Assembly (NCBI RefSeq): GCF_003019035.1 | Contig: NZ_CP027447.1 | Length of the DNA stretch: 64,000 nucleotides | Direction: 5' to 3' (one strand) | DNA from: Escherichia coli | GTDB taxonomy: Bacteria; Pseudomonadota; Gammaproteobacteria; Enterobacterales; Enterobacteriaceae | Translations under genes and position numbers: made by a program | In this document: piece after piece, positions 47,135 through 60,949 of the stretch | Layout: each line of letters opens with the position of its first letter | How positions within the stretch are numbered: position 1 is the first letter of the stretch | The notes under the pieces: generated by a model | What the model saw: only the letters and a program-made list of their open reading frames with translations | The model's database searches: none | Told to the model about the DNA's origin: nothing

Positions 47135-48121
47135 ATGTCTGAACTTATTGCAACTGCCGCTTCCAGCATTAACGCTTTTACTCTGGCAAAGCGTGTCGCC
47201 GCCTTTAACGTGCCGGTGCTCATTCAGGGCGAAACCGGTGCGGGCAAAGAGTGCGTGGCGAAATATATTCACACAGTCGCCTTTGGTGAAAATGAAAGCG
47301 CACCCTATGTCGGCGTGAACTGCGCGGCGATCCCGGAAAATATGCTGGAATCTACCTTATTTGGCTACGACAAAGGCGCATTTACCGGCGCAATTGCCAG
47401 CGTGCCAGGAAAAATGGAACTGGCGAATAACGGCACCTTATTACTCGATGAAATTGGCGATATGCCGCTGGCGTTACAGGCCAAAATATTACGCGTATTG
47501 CAGGAACAACAGGTTGAGCGATTAGGCAGCAACCGACAAATTAAACTCAATTTTCGCCTGATTGCCTGTACCAATAAAAACCTTGAACAGGAAGTTGCCA
47601 CCGGGCGTTTTCGTGAAGATCTCTATTATCGTCTGGCGGTGATTCCTATTACCATGCCGCCGCTGCGTGAACGTCTGAACGATATTATTCCGCTGGCAGA
47701 GTCATTTATTAAAAAATACTCCACGGTGCTGGTGAAAAATATCACCCTGTCGGAATCTACCCGCCGGGCGCTGCTCAATTACCGCTGGCCCGGCAACGTG
47801 CGCCAGCTCGAAAACGCCATTCAGCGTGGAATGATTTTAAATCGCGACGGCGTGATTTTCCCGGATGCCTTAGGCCTGCCGGAAACAGACGTTGCCGACC
47901 ACAGTGAACTGCAATGGCCTGTTCAGCCTGCCGTCCACATTGCCGAAACCAGCGATTTAGGCCAGCACGGACGAAGTGCGCAATATCAATATATCGCCGA
48001 CCTGATGCGTAAATATCAGGGCAACCGCAGCAAAATTGCCGACCTGTTAGGCATTACCCCGCGCGCACTGCGCTATCGACTGGCCTCCATGCGCAAGCAC
48101 GGTATCGAAGTTTTCTCCTGA
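47135..48121 (+). CDS. lafK: Sigma-54-dependent transcriptional activator of lateral flagella, lacking an N-terminal receiver domain
   Basis: 328-aa ORF beginning directly in the AAA+ sigma-54 activation domain (Walker A GETGAGKE, GAFTGA motif, C-terminal HTH); an upstream in-frame stop precludes a receiver domain. Confidence 0.8.
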   Translation: MSELIATAASSINAFTLAKRVAAFNVPVLIQGETGAGKECVAKYIHTVAFGENESAPYVGVNCAAIPENMLESTLFGYDKGAFTGAIASVPGKMELANNGTLLLDEIGDMPLALQAKILRVLQEQQVERLGSNRQIKLNFRLIACTNKNLEQEVATGRFREDLYYRLAVIPITMPPLRERLNDIIPLAESFIKKYSTVLVKNITLSESTRRALLNYRWPGNVRQLENAIQRGMILNRDGVIFPDALGLPETDVADHSELQWPVQPAVHIAETSDLGQHGRSAQYQYIADLMRKYQGNRSKIADLLGITPRALRYRLASMRKHGIEVFS

Positions 48122-53599: not shown

Positions 53600-54004
53600 A
53601 TGAAAACGGTCATCACCTTCGGCACCTTCGATGTGTTTCATGTCGGTCATCTGCGCCTTTTACAACGCGCCCGCACGCTGGGCGAACGGCTGCTGGTCGG
53701 CGTATCGTCCGACGCCTTAAATATCGCCAAAAAGGGCAGAGCACCGGTTTACCCTCAGGATGACCGCATGGCGATTATCGCCGGGCTGGCGTGCGTGGAT
53801 GGCGTATTTCTCGAAGAATCGCTGGAGCAGAAAGCGGAGTATTTGCGCGGGTACAGTGCGGATATTTTGGTGATGGGCGATGACTGGGCAGGGAAGTTTG
53901 ATAGCTTTGCGTATATTTGTGAGGTGGTGTATTTCCCCCGTACGCCGTCGGTGTCGACGACGGGGATTATTGAGGTGATTAGGGGGAAATCAGCAACCTA
54001 CTGA
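53600..54004 (+). CDS. Glycerol-3-phosphate cytidylyltransferase (TagD-like) encoded at the end of the lafK-lfiEFGHIJ operon
   Basis: 134-aa ORF starting 3 bp after lfiJ; nucleotidyltransferase HxGH motif (FGTFDVFHVGHLRLL) and C-terminal MGDDWAGKFD...CEVVYFPRTPSVSTTGI, closely paralleling Bacillus TagD as recalled. Confidence 0.8.
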   Translation: MKTVITFGTFDVFHVGHLRLLQRARTLGERLLVGVSSDALNIAKKGRAPVYPQDDRMAIIAGLACVDGVFLEESLEQKAEYLRGYSADILVMGDDWAGKFDSFAYICEVVYFPRTPSVSTTGIIEVIRGKSATY

Positions 54005-54052
54005 TTTAATTCCCGAAGTGAGAGAAGATGATGCCGTTTGGCTATGTTAAAT

Positions 54053-54155
54053 ATGTTTAAAAAATCGCGTTTTTTCGACATATCCCCAAAACATGTCGAT
54101 GGCATAAACGTATTCCAACGACATGTTTAAAAATCGCATTTTATCGACATATCCC
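54053..54155. repeat. Two about 34-bp imperfect direct repeats, each with internal dyad symmetry, between convergent TagD-like and glycosyltransferase genes
   Basis: atgtttaaaaaatcgcgttttttcgacatatcccc (54053-54087) and atgtttaaaaatcgcattttatcgacatatccc (54123-54155); the second overlaps the glycosyltransferase stop codon. Confidence 0.6.
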
Positions 54156-56612
54156 TGACGATTCCTTGCCCGCCAACGTCTCCACAATCACCATCGCCGC
54201 CCGTTCTCCCGCCTTGCCATCCATAAACGCATCGCAATAGTGATGACGAATCTTCGTAAGCCGCGCCTGCACCGCACCCCAGTCAAACGCCTCTGACAAC
54301 AAATAACGCAGTTCCGCAACATCATGAGCCACCGGCAATATTTCGCGGATTCGCTGGTCGGCGCTCTCCGGCGTGGAGTAGCTTTTCTCGCCGTCGAGCA
54401 ATTCACTCATGCCCGGAAAGTCGAGCAGGATCACCCGCTTATCGACATGGATAGCATCGAAAATAAAGCCGCTGTTATCGGTCAGCACGTAATCGGCCTT
54501 TGCCAGCAGCGCCAGCGTGTGGCGGGCGGAGTCGGTGCGCTGTTTTAAATGTCTGCGCGCGAGTGCCAGCGATGCAGTTTCTTCCGGGCGCGAGCAGGTG
54601 CCGTGGTGCAGTTTGCAAATCAGGTTCACATCATCGCTTAAGCGCCCCAATTTTTCTGCCCAGTGGGGCAGGGAGCTTAATGCGCCAAACGTTGGGGCGT
54701 AGAGCACCGTAGGTTTACGGGAATCGGGTTGAATATTTTCTGGCAGAATGCGGTCAAACGTGCCGTTATGCCAGGCGTCGAAGCGCGGGTTGCCGACTGC
54801 TTTTGCATTGCCGAAATGCGCCAGCGCCCGCTGGCTGTAGTGGCTGTAACACAAAATGCGCTGATAAAAACGGTTCCAGTCGGCGTGGTTCCACGTCTCT
54901 TTGGCTAAGCCGTACATGGCGCGAACGTTCACCGCTGCCAGGCCATTGAGCGCGGGCGTGTGGTAGGGGCTGACCAGGCATTTCACCCGCTGACCGTGTG
55001 CCTGCATTTCAGATAAGCGCATTCCTTTAAGCTGCGGATCGTCGATGCTTTTTAGCGTCTCCAGCATTTCATCCAGAAACGGTTTAAACACGCGGTCATT
55101 GATCACCAGTGTGCAGCTCTGCCCCTGCGCCTGTAGAGCGGTGATGATTGGGCGATACAGCGAGTAGTGGAATGAGGTTTCCATAAAAAAGCCGATGGTG
55201 TTGGCGATGGGGAATGCGGATGGTTTTGTAACTACGGGTAACTTATTGAAATAGTGACTAATGTTGTCGGTCACTTTTTTCTCGATGTCACTAAAGCCCG
55301 GTCGCTGATAACTAAGGCTCGGGTAACAGGCCAGCCATTTGTCGGCGCGCAGCAGCGGCTGCCAGCACTCTTCCAGCGAGTGCTCACCGTTGCCCATCTG
55401 CTGTGCCAGTTGCGGGTAGTAGCGGCTGTTCACCAGATAAGCACACACTTTGCGGCAGTCCCGCGCGTGCACCAGCCCCGGCAAACTTTTTAGCATCGTT
55501 CCCTGCGAAATTTCGCCGCCAAGGATCATCACCTGCCAGGGAATTTTCGCCAGGCTCGCCAGCAGCGTGTTCAGCACCTGAATATGTTTCTCCTGCTTGA
55601 GAATAACCGCGTCATCTTCCAGCAGCAGATAGTTTTGCCAGCCGTGCTGTTGCGCCAGGCGCAGCGCCTGCAAGTGCGACAGGCGGCGGCCCCGTTGACC
55701 GTTTTCATCTTCACAGGCGGCAAGGCGGGTGATTTTCTCGGGCGGAATATGCAGCAGTGCCAGTTCTTCACGGATCTGTTGTAAGCGATCCGGGCGTTTA
55801 TCCAGATTGATCAATACGACCTGATCGATCGCCTGATGGTTGATCGCCTGGTGATGAGTGGCGTTATGCAGACTCAGATAAGCATTGCGGAGCAGCGGAT
55901 CGCGGACGATATCCGTAAGCGCCGCGTTTACTGGCGTGCTGGCCCCGAGAATAAAGTCTTTATCAAAGGTGTTGTGGCTGTGCGAGATACACAAAATCGT
56001 GCGCTCGCCGGGCAGTTGTAGCGGGTTAGCGCTGAAATTGTCGGTGAAACTTTTCTCTTCGCCTAAATTGCAATCGTCATCGTAGCGGTGCTTTTTCAGG
56101 TAGTTACGGTGATAGCAAAAGGTGCCGTTGAGGATGTTATGCGGGCCGAAGCTGCGGCTTTGAAAGATGCGATTGATGTGGCTGTACCAGATGGGGATCT
56201 GGTCGGAACCGGAGATGAGCGCCCGGTTTTTTTGCATCATAGCGATGGTGTAAGAGATTTTATCTGCCGGGTAGTAGTCGTCATCGTCCATGCAGAGGAT
56301 GTATTCGCCGCGCGCCAGTTCGTTGAGCATATTGCGTTTTTTGCCCAGCGGCAGTTTTTCCGGGTGATGGATGTAGCGGATGTTGAAGGCTTCCTGTGTG
56401 CCATTGGTCAGGCGGTCGATGATGTGTTGATGGCTTTGCGGGGAATCGTCGAGGATGATGAGTTCGCGGCGGTCTGCCGGGTAGTCCTGATAGCGGTACA
56501 TATAAAGCAGGTACGGCAGGAATGCGCTGCGGTTCCAGGTTGGCGTGACGACGCTGACGAACGGTTTTTCGCGCTGGGTGGCGAGTGTTTTGATAATGGT
56601 TGGTGTTGGCAT
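54141..56612 (-). CDS. Large multidomain glycosyltransferase: N-terminal GT2-like, central GT25-like and C-terminal TagB/TagF-like CDP-glycerol glycerophosphotransferase domains
   Basis: N-terminus VSVVTPTWNRSAFL...ILDDSP...CMDDDDYY (GT-A/DxD); central VVLINLDKRPDRLQQI (GT25-like); C-terminus TVLYAPTFG...VLTDNSGFIFDAI (TagF-like). Start set at MPTPTIIK; the ORF-track extension to 56684 runs through a repeat element and is uncertain. Confidence 0.7.
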   Translation of the reverse strand: MPTPTIIKTLATQREKPFVSVVTPTWNRSAFLPYLLYMYRYQDYPADRRELIILDDSPQSHQHIIDRLTNGTQEAFNIRYIHHPEKLPLGKKRNMLNELARGEYILCMDDDDYYPADKISYTIAMMQKNRALISGSDQIPIWYSHINRIFQSRSFGPHNILNGTFCYHRNYLKKHRYDDDCNLGEEKSFTDNFSANPLQLPGERTILCISHSHNTFDKDFILGASTPVNAALTDIVRDPLLRNAYLSLHNATHHQAINHQAIDQVVLINLDKRPDRLQQIREELALLHIPPEKITRLAACEDENGQRGRRLSHLQALRLAQQHGWQNYLLLEDDAVILKQEKHIQVLNTLLASLAKIPWQVMILGGEISQGTMLKSLPGLVHARDCRKVCAYLVNSRYYPQLAQQMGNGEHSLEECWQPLLRADKWLACYPSLSYQRPGFSDIEKKVTDNISHYFNKLPVVTKPSAFPIANTIGFFMETSFHYSLYRPIITALQAQGQSCTLVINDRVFKPFLDEMLETLKSIDDPQLKGMRLSEMQAHGQRVKCLVSPYHTPALNGLAAVNVRAMYGLAKETWNHADWNRFYQRILCYSHYSQRALAHFGNAKAVGNPRFDAWHNGTFDRILPENIQPDSRKPTVLYAPTFGALSSLPHWAEKLGRLSDDVNLICKLHHGTCSRPEETASLALARRHLKQRTDSARHTLALLAKADYVLTDNSGFIFDAIHVDKRVILLDFPGMSELLDGEKSYSTPESADQRIREILPVAHDVAELRYLLSEAFDWGAVQARLTKIRHHYCDAFMDGKAGERAAMVIVETLAGKESSGICR

Positions 56613-56661
56613 GGTGTTTGGGTGAGTTAATGGGTGAATGTGATGAATGTGCGTGCTGATG

Positions 56662-56770
56662 CCCTCACCCCGACCCTCTCCCACAGGGAGAGGGAGAAAA
56701 CCAGCGCCGATTTTAACACCGTGCTCGATCGGTTCCCTCGCCCCTTTGAGGAGAGGGTTAGGGGGAGGGG
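56662..56770. repeat. Pair of inverted GC-rich repeat units (Box C-like family)
   Basis: ccctcaccccgaccctctcccacagggagaggga (56662-56697) and ccctcgcccctttgaggagagggttagggggagggg (56735-56770) in opposite orientation. Confidence 0.5.
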
Positions 56771-56790
56771 AAAAGCGCGCACAGAGCGAC

Positions 56791-57720
56791 TCACGTCAGC
56801 AGCGAAAATGCTGACAGCAGCGGCTCTGCCGCACATAACGACTGGAGCTGCTGGCGAATCGCCGCAGCATTTTCACTCTCTCGCCAGCGTTCAAACACCG
56901 CAAAAAGGGCGAAAATATCCTCCTTCCGCAGCGGTGAACCATCCAGCGTCCATAAACTGATTAACGTGCGGATGAGATAAAAATCACACACCAGCGGGCA
57001 ATAATCTGCTCCGTCTGCCTGCCCAATCACGTCGTGATAAACGCGGTAAATCAGCCAGTTGCGCATCATCCACGGCGCGGCGGCAAAATGCTGTTGCCAG
57101 GTGGTTTGCCACTGCACCTTAAGCTGCTGTTGCAACAAAGCTTCGCTGTTGGCGTCATGCAACGTCAGCAAAGTCACCTGCAACGGTAGCGAGGCTTTGC
57201 GCGGGCTTTCCGGCAAAATCGACCAGTCAAACGCAAAACTCCCGAGCAGCGTCACCAGTTGGCGCGCCAGTTGTGGCACGGGTGGGAGTTGGGCGAACTG
57301 TGCCTGTAGCGTGCCTTTTTGTGCATGATCCCCCAGCGCCTGTGGCAGCGTTGTCAAGCGGGCAAGAATATCTCCGTCTCTGCCCGGCATTTTACTGGCG
57401 CGGGAGAGCAAAATCCCGACGGCATACAGGGAAAGCTCCGGGGTTAAATCGGGGAGCGTAAGGGTACTCAAAATTATCTGGTTGACTATCGCATCGCGCG
57501 CGGATAGCTCGGCGGCATTGTCTTCCACAGGGCGGTAGGTGAGCTGTAAATCAAAGGCCCTGGCATCGTTGAGCACCGCTTTGCAACTTTCAATATCGGT
57601 CAATGCCAGGCTCTGGCGAATCTCATTCTTCCAGACCTTGCGGACGTACAAAGGCGAATCGGGATATTGCGTCATAAAATTGCGCACGTATTCCGGTTCG
57701 TAACATTCAATAAAACTCAT
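56791..57720 (-). CDS. Hypothetical protein of the Flag-2 locus
   Basis: About 309 aa from MSFIECYEPEYVRNF; no recognisable motif by eye; sits between lfgN and the glycosyltransferase gene on the same strand. Confidence 0.5.
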   Translation of the reverse strand: MSFIECYEPEYVRNFMTQYPDSPLYVRKVWKNEIRQSLALTDIESCKAVLNDARAFDLQLTYRPVEDNAAELSARDAIVNQIILSTLTLPDLTPELSLYAVGILLSRASKMPGRDGDILARLTTLPQALGDHAQKGTLQAQFAQLPPVPQLARQLVTLLGSFAFDWSILPESPRKASLPLQVTLLTLHDANSEALLQQQLKVQWQTTWQQHFAAAPWMMRNWLIYRVYHDVIGQADGADYCPLVCDFYLIRTLISLWTLDGSPLRKEDIFALFAVFERWRESENAAAIRQQLQSLCAAEPLLSAFSLLT

Positions 57721-57847
57721 AGGTGGCTTCCAGTCTTTATTACTTTGCGGAATGTGCAATAAGCGTGCCGGGAATTTTTGTAATCAAAAACAAGGGATTG
57801 AGAATCAGGCGGAAAATCCGTTTCCGCGATGGGGGAAGGAATTGTCG

Positions 57848-58276
57848 TTATTCCTGGTACAGAAAATCTGCTTCGCCGCCTAAAAAAGACTGAATAAATT
57901 CATACTGGCGAATCAACAGCTCGCCGTTTTTGTCGTTGTAGGCTTTGCAGCGTTCCGCTTTTTGCTCAAGGCGTTGCCACAACTGTTGTGCTGCTGCTTT
58001 TTGCACAGCCGGAAGCCAGGCAAAAACCTGCGCCAGACCGTCACGATTTACACTGACATTGAGCATTTTCAGCAGGCTGTGTCGCTGATGGCTATGCCCA
58101 TGCAACTGCTCATAGTGATGTGTTATCTCGTCGTTTACCGCCAGCAGATCTTCGCTGGCGCGGCGAATCATGCAGATCCGCTGACGCTGGAGAAGTTCGC
58201 GCAGGGAATCGTACAGTGCGTCGTCGTCACGAATGCCCTGCAACAACGCCTTCACCTGTTGTAACCGGATACTCAC
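57848..58276 (-). CDS. lfgN: Lateral flagellar chaperone (FlgN homologue)
   Basis: 142-aa ORF (GTG start) downstream of the FlgM homologue. Confidence 0.65.
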   Translation of the reverse strand: MSIRLQQVKALLQGIRDDDALYDSLRELLQRQRICMIRRASEDLLAVNDEITHHYEQLHGHSHQRHSLLKMLNVSVNRDGLAQVFAWLPAVQKAAAQQLWQRLEQKAERCKAYNDKNGELLIRQYEFIQSFLGGEADFLYQE

Positions 58277-59414: not shown

Positions 59415-59430
59415 TGGCACAGCGATTGCA
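59415..59430 (+). promoter_or_regulatory. Sigma-54 (-24/-12) promoter for the lfgBCDEFG operon
   Basis: TGGCAC-agcga-TTGCA, an exact match to the RpoN consensus, about 37 bp upstream of the lfgB ATG (59467). Confidence 0.65.
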
Positions 59431-59804: not shown

Positions 59805-60236
59805 ATGTCATTTACTGATATCTATCAGATTTCCGGCTCGGCGATGACGGCGCAAACGCTACGTCTGAATACCGTCGCCAGTAACCTGGCGAATGCTAAT
59901 GCACCTGCCGGCAGCGAGGCGCAGGCGTATAAAGCGCGCAGCCCGGTGTTTGCGGCGGTGTATCACCACAGCTTGCTGGTGGGTACACATCGTCATGCCA
60001 TTGATGGTGCCAGCGTGCAGGTGCAGGACGTGCTGCAAACCGGCGGGGCGGTGAAACGCTATGAACCGCATTCGCCGCTGGCGGATGCTAACGGGGATGT
60101 CTGGTATCCCGACGTCAACGTGGTGGAACAGATGGCGGACATGATGTCGGCCTCGCGCGATTTTGAAACCAATGTCGATGTGCTCAACAACGTGAAAAGT
60201 ATGCAGCAAAGCCTGCTGAAACTGGGAGAAGCCTGA
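59805..60236 (+). CDS. lfgC: Lateral flagellar rod protein (FlgC homologue)
   Basis: 143-aa ORF; LASNLANANAP rod-family motif. Confidence 0.85.
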   Translation: MSFTDIYQISGSAMTAQTLRLNTVASNLANANAPAGSEAQAYKARSPVFAAVYHHSLLVGTHRHAIDGASVQVQDVLQTGGAVKRYEPHSPLADANGDVWYPDVNVVEQMADMMSASRDFETNVDVLNNVKSMQQSLLKLGEA

Positions 60237-60949
60237 TGAATACCCTGGCGCTGAATGCGCAATCGCCGCAGCCGACCGCCACGGCGGAAAGCAACAACGT
60301 GGCGGCCAGCGACACGCAAAGTAGCAGCGATAGCTCGCCCGTCGATACCTTCCTGACGCTGTTTGTCGCTGAGATCCAAAACCAGGACCCGACCGACCCG
60401 ACCGACGCCACCGAATATATCGACCAGCTTTCGTCAATGGCGCAGGTGGCGATGATGGAAGAGATGAGCGTGCAGGCGAATACCAACGCGGTGTTGATGA
60501 GCAACATTCAGGTGATGGCGCTCGGCAACCTGGTGGGCGACGACATTATGGTGCAGACCACCGCCTTGCAGGTGAGTGACCAGACCATTAACGGTCGCGC
60601 CACGCTTGACGACGCCTGTACCACCGCCGATCTCCACTTTACCGATGCCGCAGGCGATGACTATACGGTGTCGCTGATCCCGGAAGGGAGTTCGTCCGTC
60701 GGGCCAGGCCAGGTGGATTTCTCGGTGAATCCCGCGGATTACGGTATCCCGCCGGGTGATTACGACGTCTCGGTGGTCACCAACACCGGGGAAGAAGAGG
60801 TGCCGATTGAAGTCTCCGGCGAAGTGGAAGATGTGCGCATCCCGCTCGACGGCAGCTCTCCGGTGCTCAATGTTGCAGGTGTAGGCGAAGTGCCGTTCAC
60901 CATGATTAGCCAGTTTGGCGTACCCGATGCCGACAGTGATGTGGCGTAA
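60236..60949 (+). CDS. lfgD: Lateral flagellar hook capping protein (FlgD homologue)
   Basis: 237-aa ORF; position between the FlgC and FlgE homologues. Confidence 0.8.
   Translation: MNTLALNAQSPQPTATAESNNVAASDTQSSSDSSPVDTFLTLFVAEIQNQDPTDPTDATEYIDQLSSMAQVAMMEEMSVQANTNAVLMSNIQVMALGNLVGDDIMVQTTALQVSDQTINGRATLDDACTTADLHFTDAAGDDYTVSLIPEGSSSVGPGQVDFSVNPADYGIPPGDYDVSVVTNTGEEEVPIEVSGEVEDVRIPLDGSSPVLNVAGVGEVPFTMISQFGVPDADSDVA

Follow-up and report, generated by a model that had tools for sequence, protein, structure and literature searches.

FliB, the flagellin lysine methyltransferase of Salmonella enterica, targets surface-exposed lysines in the D2/D3 domains of flagellin, of which up to 16 are methylated in FliC and up to 18 in FljB (PMC7181671). 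It carries one oxygen-sensitive [4Fe-4S] cluster, which is bound by a CX4CX3CC motif, and its reaction requires S-adenosylmethionine (SAM) and dithionite; when the four cysteines of the motif were substituted (C17A/C22A/C26A/C27A), both the cluster and methylation were lost (PMC8598068). The protein has eight highly conserved cysteines and no recognizable methyltransferase domain (PMC8598068). Here, we describe a homolog of FliB, LafV, which is encoded in a stretch of 64,000 nucleotides of Escherichia coli DNA (contig NZ_CP027447.1; hereafter the window), lacks the counterpart of this iron-sulfur (Fe-S) module and is the product of a gene that adjoins a glycosyltransferase (GT) gene.

The gene name lafV is in use in the literature on Flag-2, the cluster for lateral flagella, and has been attributed to earlier work (PMC6993521). 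A survey of flag-2 loci from 2020, which predates the discovery of the FliB cluster, equated LafV with FliB and found LafV in 342 and glycosyltransferases in 341 of 592 loci (PMC6993521). In its supplement, all ten LafV orthogroups (LafV1-LafV10) are listed with sizes of 228-318 amino acids (aa) and with a '-' in the column for conserved domains (PMC6993521). The gene in the window is this lafV, which in the E. coli Flag-2 cluster is the FliB-like gene within variable region 1 (VR1): in the gene order lfiI-lfiJ-tagD-like/GT-lafV-lfgN-lfgM-lfgA, a FliB-like protein of 309 aa is encoded between lfiJ and lfgN. It shares this position, its size (about 311 aa) and its taxa with the published orthogroups and most likely belongs to LafV6, which comprises 219 strains from six genera of Enterobacteriaceae (PMC6993521). 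The survey and the present analysis differ only in interpretation: LafV was regarded there as a FliB orthologue and methylation of flagellin as common, whereas we find every LafV group to be short and to lack the Fe-S module.

An identical protein is publicly available on 95 contigs under the name 'lysine-N-methylase [Escherichia coli]', a name that sits on thousands of database entries for LafV, and the product name in RefSeq is 'hypothetical protein'. The precomputed Pfam family of LafV and of all its homologs is PF27117 (FliB_C). Hence, the description of the protein as unassigned in the original prediction, which was made from the letters of the DNA, does not hold, since it already had a gene name, a family and a public product name; the position given there, between lfgN and a glycosyltransferase gene on the same strand, is correct. 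The literature searched contained neither experiments on LafV nor any mention of its missing Cys motif. Gene and family were already known, and what appears to be new is that the LafV group as a whole is a cluster-less variant of FliB coupled to glycosyltransferases.

Homology to FliB and the missing cysteine-rich module

LafV is a true homolog of FliB. Alignment of profiles of the two proteins with hhalign gave a probability of 100% (E = 8e-41) over 297 columns, in which LafV residues 10-309 are matched to FliB residues 97-401. NF038110, the NCBIfam profile of flagellin lysine-N-methylase FliB, also matches LafV (E = 4.9e-10), but with 39.5 bits as compared with a curated cutoff of 85 bits for this equivalog and only over positions 106-367 of the 373 in the profile. 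A Pfam scan with a copy of the database older than PF27117 gave no match.

A profile search over 1.84 billion representative proteins yielded 160 relatives in two size classes, which were split by motif into three classes. Class 1 consists of long forms of 390-437 aa with a C-x4-C-x3-CC motif near residue 17, class 2 of short forms of 297-327 aa that have kept a C-x-C-x2-C triplet, and class 3, to which the lafV product belongs, of short forms of 306-315 aa without a Cys motif. The scores against NF038110 follow this division, with 158-314 bits over positions 1-372 for six long forms, 52-79 bits for class 2 and 39-51 bits for class 3.

In a joint MAFFT alignment, LafV residues 1-16, with the motif Y-x-P-x-[FY]-V-x-x-F in which P9 is invariant in all classes, pair with residues 1-16 of FliB. 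Thereafter, approximately 85 FliB residues (roughly 17-105) are without counterpart in LafV, and the two proteins are then colinear up to the C terminus with an offset of +83. The two also have in common the motif N-[YW]-L-x-Y-R-[LV]-Y-H-D, besides a few further positions. The pairing of the first 9-16 residues rests on the MAFFT alignment and on the structure models discussed below, the local hhalign alignment beginning only at LafV residue 10 and FliB residue 97.

The segment without counterpart is the part of FliB in which conservation is concentrated. Among 56 long-form sequences, 28 positions are conserved at 85% or more, and 22 of them fall within residues 1-126 (M1, P9, F15, C17, G19, C22, C26, C27, W30, D35, C79, L87, C88, G95, L99, C103, Y106, P107, R108, S124, C125 and P126); those beyond are L133, L183, N308, F319, H373 and L399. 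Eight cysteines are invariant in the long forms (17, 22, 26, 27, 79, 88, 103 and 125), none of which is retained in LafV: seven of them, including the CX4CX3CC ligands, sit in the missing module, and C125 is replaced by Asp. None of the 53 class 3 sequences has a residue aligned with FliB positions 26-108. Thr17 and Ser22 are aligned with C17 and C22 of FliB, and gaps are found at the remaining positions of the motif. The other signature residues of the module (W30, D35, G95 and Y106-P107-R108) are also absent, with a possible remnant of the Y-P dipeptide in the hhalign alignment. LafV has five cysteines of its own (6, 46, 241, 245 and 296), which form no FliB-type motif. PF03692, the family of CxxCxxCC metal-chelating proteins (UPF0153), weakly matches residues 17-126 of long forms only (17-21 bits; cutoff 23) and gave no match in LafV or other short forms.

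The class 2 proteins, represented by Serratia sp. M24T3/Rouxiella WP_009638824 (P0110), resemble LafV in their size, in the deletion of approximately 85 residues and in being encoded in VR1 of a flag-2 locus beside a GT2 gene. Unlike LafV, they have kept three aligned cysteines besides their own triplet, and they have an equivalent of C125. The CxCxxC triplet and the C125 equivalent amount to four possible metal ligands, and a small Fe-S or zinc site might be conceivable in these proteins. Class 2 LafV might be a transitional form between FliB and LafV without these cysteines.

The predicted structures agree with the alignments. The AlphaFold 2 (AF2) models of LafV and FliB have mean predicted local distance difference test (pLDDT) scores of 91.8 and 91.1, respectively, and show the same topology with the offset of +83. 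Strands at LafV residues 3-9, 25-30, 33-38 and 58-64 correspond to FliB residues 2-9, 108-113, 116-121 and 141-148, and a helix at LafV residues 43-50 corresponds to FliB residues 126-133. Both proteins thus consist of the N-terminal strand, a small four-stranded sheet and a helical bundle, LafV being all-helical past the sheet, and FliB residues 17-107 interrupt the sheet after its first strand, ahead of the bundle. No canonical methyltransferase fold (Rossmann class I or SET) and no SAM-binding motif were detected in LafV, the predicted fold of which is unlike any solved methyltransferase; a sequence-profile search of the PDB with LafV gave only a chance match to AsnC (E = 0.2). Profile searches and structure prediction had both been proposed with the original prediction, and they led to FliB and to a confident model, respectively.

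Thus, hhalign and the matching AF2 topologies agree that LafV has the FliB_C body, and LafV is almost certainly a cluster-less FliB_C homolog. A simple 5' truncation of fliB was considered and rejected. LafV is best described as FliB from which the Cys-rich module has been cleanly excised by an internal deletion, because the N-terminal motif with P9 is shared, the cysteines of class 2 follow right after this motif and the β1 strands of the models match. The spacer of 127 nt between lfgN and lafV also leaves no room for a lost N-terminal piece.

LafV thus lacks the one element that was shown to be essential for the chemistry of FliB, and it is likely not a FliB-type methylase. Because the Fe-S module is missing and a GT gene is its constant neighbor, the label 'lysine-N-methylase' is probably wrong. 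LafV should rather be filed as a FliB_C-domain protein (LafV) than as a FliB equivalog, because the FliB_C body is the only one of the tested family features that it shares with the equivalog: its score lies below the cutoff, the cluster motif and the invariant cysteines are absent, and its presumed substrate is not rich in lysine (see below). This natural separation of a helical body from an invariant Fe-S module suggests that, in FliB, the body serves in substrate docking and the Cys-rich module in catalysis. For work on the fold and mechanism of FliB, the case of LafV would be helpful, and the division between body and module can be addressed with truncations.

The glycosyltransferase partner and the presumed substrate

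In the window, as in all 28 short-form loci (24 of class 3 and four of class 2), lafV adjoins a GT gene. The class 3 loci were collected in a genome scan with an alignment of LafV only, which covers this class only; in 24 of 24, the same three-part GT gene directly follows lafV, and the N-terminal part of its product retains 67-97% identity, also in loci where that of LafV has fallen to 40%. The three parts are an N-terminal GT2 domain (PF00535; 66.1 bits), a middle part without Pfam match and a C-terminal part that weakly resembles TagF, with a score of 17.2-20.2 bits for PF04464 (CDP-glycerol glycerophosphotransferase; cutoff 22.1). The arrangement is reversed, as fliJ-GT-lafV, in all four class 2 loci, whose LafV proteins have 26-32% identity to that of the window; the partner GT there consists of the GT2 and middle parts and lacks the TagF-like part. 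The two genes overlap by 4 nt (L004) or 14 nt (L030) or are separated by gaps of 4 nt (L002) or 33 nt (L031). Such overlapping or abutting spacing typically accompanies translational coupling. Since adjacency is kept in class 2 although the order is inverted, the pairing of lafV and the GT gene survives rearrangement and deep divergence.

In contrast, none of four long-form FliB contexts has a GT neighbor. One of them is canonical, with fliB between the flagellin gene and fliA, and the other three are non-flagellar. The latter long forms (L003, L035 and L036, with proteins P0121, P0156 and P0148) pass the cutoff of NF038110 and are encoded far from flagellar genes, one by efp/epmB-like genes, one near an ABC transporter as a member of a tandem pair, and the third next to hydrogenase/complex-I-like genes. 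The FliB family may therefore have substrates other than flagellin.

The VR1 module of the window also contains a gene for a TagD-like cytidylyltransferase, which in the majority of related loci lies no more than 10 kb from lafV. From these similarities, a putative role of the TagD-like product in the synthesis of CDP-glycerol or another activated donor can be proposed, and there is a hint that the flagellin glycan may contain glycerol phosphate.

The presumed substrate of LafV is the lateral flagellin LafA, the gene of which lies outside the window; the sequence used (304 aa) was that of E. coli SMS-3-5, from which LafA of strain AR_0077 differs in one residue. E. coli LafA has six lysines (19, 47, 92, 234, 277 and 290), all of them in the conserved terminal regions. 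Its residues 131-220 include neither Lys nor Arg, and 30 of these 90 residues (33%) are Ser or Thr. Among LafA homologs, 97 of 105 have no more than two central lysines, and 26-37% of the central region is Ser/Thr. LafA thus lacks the lysine-rich D2/D3 surface of the flagellins that FliB modifies, where the surface exposure of its central region is assumed from the general architecture of flagellins. The composition of this region is the one that would be expected of a flagellin that is O-glycosylated rather than methylated at lysines.

These observations can be combined in a model in which LafV no longer methylates lysine but keeps the variable, helical, scaffold-like FliB_C body, which in FliB would most plausibly dock flagellin or a flagellin-chaperone substrate. 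LafV, presumably cytoplasmic and, like FliB, encoded in a flagellar cluster, would then assist the multidomain glycosyltransferase encoded next to it, either in recognizing flagellin or as an assembly partner. Both would be expressed under control of LafK and sigma-54 ahead of flagellin synthesis, and, before export, LafA would be bound by LafV in such a way that its center, free of lysine and rich in Ser/Thr, is presented for O-linked modification. An analogy is offered by two-part flagellin glycosyltransferases such as FlmG of Caulobacter, in which a TPR domain that binds flagellin is combined with a GT domain. The likeness would be functional only, i.e., a non-catalytic module that recognizes flagellin and delivers it to a GT, without relation in sequence or fold; unlike in FlmG, recognition is here proposed for a polypeptide of its own, one that descends from a methyltransferase.

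Weighing the explanations

That LafV is a non-catalytic derivative of FliB which serves the glycosylation of flagellin, most likely by recognizing flagellin, is the explanation that we tentatively favor, as one that comes close to being probable. Its narrower form, an adaptor that links flagellin to the glycosyltransferase, is put forward with a shade more caution. It is preferred to the methylase function because the Fe-S module is missing, because a GT gene is adjacent in 28 of 28 loci, because the two genes overlap or nearly abut in two of the four class 2 loci and because the center of LafA is free of lysine and rich in Ser/Thr. The original prediction had proposed a flagellar accessory function linked to flagellin modification, which is supported by the homology to FliB and by a conserved sigma-54 element inside the Flag-2 cluster (see below); its further guess, substrate recognition for the glycosyltransferase, is now favored over the database label and remains a proposal deduced from sequences. 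With more reserve again, LafV may be called a pseudoenzyme, i.e., a radical-type [4Fe-4S] flagellin methyltransferase that has lost its catalytic module and has been recruited as the flagellin-recognition subunit of the GT.

Several points weigh against this explanation. The adaptor role is deduced from the gene neighborhood and the loss of the Fe-S module, and adjacency counts for less within a compact flagellar island than it would for free-standing pairs; only four long-form contexts were compared. The TagF-like and TagD-like assignments lie below the curated cutoffs. Outside Escherichia, LafA often has 1-3 central lysines, and a few are present in the terminal domains of every LafA protein; moreover, the surface exposure of the central region is an assumption. 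Finally, the inactive Cys mutant of FliB may be misfolded, the FliB_C body could hold a SAM site and a protein adapted to the loss could catalyze the reaction without the cluster.

The last points lead to the published view that LafV is a flagellin lysine-N-methylase and an orthologue of FliB, which would methylate LafA with SAM at a site in the FliB_C body, the Fe-S module being dispensable. In its favor are the clear homology over about 280 residues, the shared N-[YW]-L-x-Y-R-[LV]-Y-H-D motif and a few other common positions, the flagellar locus and the purifying selection, as well as the six terminal lysines of E. coli LafA and the 1-3 central ones in many other LafA proteins, and a SAM site in the body might have remained undiscovered. 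Nevertheless, we consider it unlikely: the CX4CX3CC motif that is essential in FliB (PMC8598068) and all eight invariant cysteines are gone, the NF038110 score is less than half the cutoff, consistent with the product name in RefSeq, neither a methyltransferase fold nor a SAM motif was detected, the central region of E. coli LafA is devoid of lysine, and, when the survey made its assignment, the cluster had yet to be discovered and no conserved domain spoke for it. A variant of this view, in which the enzyme is split, with LafV as one half and a small PF03692-type Fe-S protein encoded elsewhere in the genome to supply the cluster in trans, is very unlikely. Domain fission is conceivable, since residues 17-126 of long forms resemble free-standing PF03692 proteins, and the cysteines kept in class 2 look like an intermediate state. 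However, when all six frames of the window were searched for CX4CX3CC, CX2CX2CC and CX3CX2C, no open reading frame (ORF) able to supply a cluster in trans emerged, and short off-frame or antisense segments with Cys motifs, e.g., inside lfhA, were discarded as candidates. No PF03692 gene is present in the gene calls of the four class 2 loci either, the class 3 loci having been compared with proteins of the window only. In addition, the excision is clean and internal and does not resemble a gene split, and the glycosyltransferase is the sole co-occurring partner seen.

LafV might also have another non-catalytic flagellar role apart from the GT, either as an export-gate or chaperone-like factor for LafA or as a regulator together with LfgN and LfgM. 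This would fit with the gene order, since lafV comes immediately after lfgM-lfgN in 23 of 24 loci, with the helical build of LafV past the small sheet, which is like that of many flagellar chaperones and adaptors, and with its own class 3-specific invariant polar residues (R174, K175, D189, E277, W279 and R280), which are not conserved in FliB. It appears rather improbable, as lafV in class 2 is found apart from lfgN-lfgM or on the opposite strand and is still joined to the GT gene, and as the flag-2 loci without VR1 (about 35%) have no lafV (PMC6993521), for which reason it is not a core assembly factor. The remaining explanation, a decaying and functionless remnant of fliB, is suggested by the loss of the module that carries nearly all conserved residues of FliB and by the degradation or deletion of Flag-2 in many E. 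coli strains: most of the lafV region is carried by 1276 of 5426 complete genomes, and lfgD is a pseudogene in AR_0077. This explanation is largely refuted and is the least probable of all. Homologs with an intact frame of 306-315 aa and 40-97% identity are found in six genera (Escherichia, Pseudocitrobacter, Citrobacter, Enterobacter, Phytobacter and Leminorella), and 48 positions, Met1 included, are invariant among them. The ratio of nonsynonymous to synonymous substitution rates (dN/dS) as compared with the copy in the window is 0.08-0.17 where dS is not saturated (0.28-0.54), which equals that of the functional neighbors (0.11-0.16 for the glycosyltransferase and 0.02-0.12 for lfgN). Furthermore, the structure is confidently predicted and the promoter conserved. 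Thus, lafV is a real gene under purifying selection.

If LafV cannot methylate, both the database name and the conclusion that methylation of flagellin is common in flag-2 are wrong, and the modification to be predicted for the lateral flagellin would be glycosylation alone. If LafV is indeed a pseudoenzyme, the approximately 340 'FliB orthologues' of flag-2 would mark glycosylation instead of methylation, FliB_C would be the flagellin-docking module of FliB itself and the class 2 proteins would be evolutionary intermediates. LafV would then offer an example of an enzyme scaffold that is reused as a non-catalytic partner in a different pathway of protein modification. The practical stakes are modest, as Flag-2 is non-essential and often degraded and the conditions for its expression in E. 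coli are poorly known.

Gene boundaries, expression signals and neighboring features

The features of the locus are listed in Table 1. In near-identical E. coli genomes, RefSeq calls the same coding sequence of 930 nt, and over positions 56600-57900, the window matches E. coli AR_0077 and further genomes at 99.3% identity. The well-formed ORF of the original prediction is confirmed by its intact frame, its homologs in six genera and its low dN/dS. The plausible ribosome-binding site that was mentioned with it is present in the form of GGAAG, although it is weak. The ATG start is backed by the invariant Met1 and the conserved N terminus in 21 homologs. A TTG start at 57759, which would give 322 aa, was rejected; it lies inside the -12 element of the sigma-54 promoter described below, and the extension is found in no homolog except one outlier. 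For the glycosyltransferase gene, a GTG start at 56684 (847 aa), which is the one in the program-made list of ORFs, was likewise rejected, since it reads through a palindromic repeat ('MGEGRGEGIS...') and both RefSeq and the homologs start at the ATG.

Table 1. Features of the lafV region, with positions in the 64-kb window.
Feature	Position	Strand	Description
lafV coding sequence	56791..57720	minus	ATG start; 309 codons plus stop, 930 nt; intact ORF
Shine-Dalgarno-like GGAAG	57727..57731	minus	Weak; 6 nt before the lafV ATG; read from the sequence
Sigma-54-type -24/-12 element GGCACGCTTATTGCA	57755..57769	minus	Begins 49 nt upstream of the lafV ATG
lfgN	57848..58276	minus	FlgN-family export chaperone; PF05130, 68.8 bits; upstream neighbor of lafV
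Imperfect inverted repeat	56648-56698 and 56733-56783		51-nt arms, 71% complementary; in the 178-nt spacer between lafV and the GT gene
Glycosyltransferase gene	54141..56612	minus	Multidomain, 823 aa; ATG at 56612; invariant neighbor of lafV
TagF-like C-terminal part of the glycosyltransferase	54141-55052		
TagD-like cytidylyltransferase gene	53600..54004	plus	PF01467, 71.1 bits; TIGR01518, 113.9 bits (cutoff 165.4); same VR1 module
lafK-like gene	47135..48121	plus	Sigma-54-dependent activator; by position, matching 'sigma-54 interaction domain-containing protein' of AR_0077
Sigma-54-type -24/-12 element GGCACAGCGATTGCA	59416..59430	plus	A few bases before the lfgB ATG (59437)

Exact matches to GGCAC-N5-TTGCW are found only twice in the 64 kb, as GGCACGCTTATTGCA and GGCACAGCGATTGCA, where a mean of 0.55 would be expected by chance. 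Of 24 related loci, 19 have the similar sequence GGCA[CT]-N5-TTGC[AT] upstream of lafV, its 5' end lying 49-111 nt ahead of the start codon, and a scan for sigma-70 promoters upstream of lafV gave nothing. From its sequence and position, GGCACGCTTATTGCA is likely the LafK/sigma-54 promoter of a lafV-glycosyltransferase transcript, and GGCACAGCGATTGCA is probably that of the lfgBCDEFG operon for rod and hook. The product of the lafK-like gene is the presumed activator of the lafV promoter. It is therefore likely that lafV is transcribed with the early lateral-flagellar genes before flagellin, probably together with the GT gene.

The spacer between lafV and the GT gene is occupied by an imperfect inverted repeat. 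The original prediction had placed this pair (56662-56770) around the ORF; the pair is real, but both arms are located 3' of lafV, between its stop codon and the ATG of the glycosyltransferase gene. The RNA of the spacer folds into a hairpin of -84.6 kcal/mol (z = -6.3), which might modulate read-through or the stability of the mRNA. Of 5426 complete E. coli genomes, 3852 carry 1-4 copies of one arm (56644-56703) with 93-95% identity; among them is K-12 MG1655, which has no lafV, with a copy at 164538-164597 (95% identical). Hence, the repeat in the spacer is a copy of a dispersed, GC-rich palindromic element of E. coli.

The content of VR1 varies among near-identical strains. In SMS-3-5 (L001, 4890-6243), two additional hypothetical genes of 179 and 273 aa are located between the cytidylyltransferase and glycosyltransferase genes, where a spacer of approximately 137 nt is present in the window (54004-54141) and in AR_0077. 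In AR_0077, the genome closest to the window, the annotation gives lfgD, the hook-cap gene, as a pseudogene because of an internal stop (L033, 15258-15971), and the corresponding ORF in the window (60236-60949; 237 aa) is intact; thus, the integrity of Flag-2 differs between very close strains. Among the related loci, contig CACSKA010000002.1 of 'Chryseobacterium sp. 18061' (L019) contains an enterobacterial flag-2 locus that is nearly the same as that of 'Citrobacter sp. 18056' (L020) from the same project, and the former assembly is probably mislabeled or contaminated.

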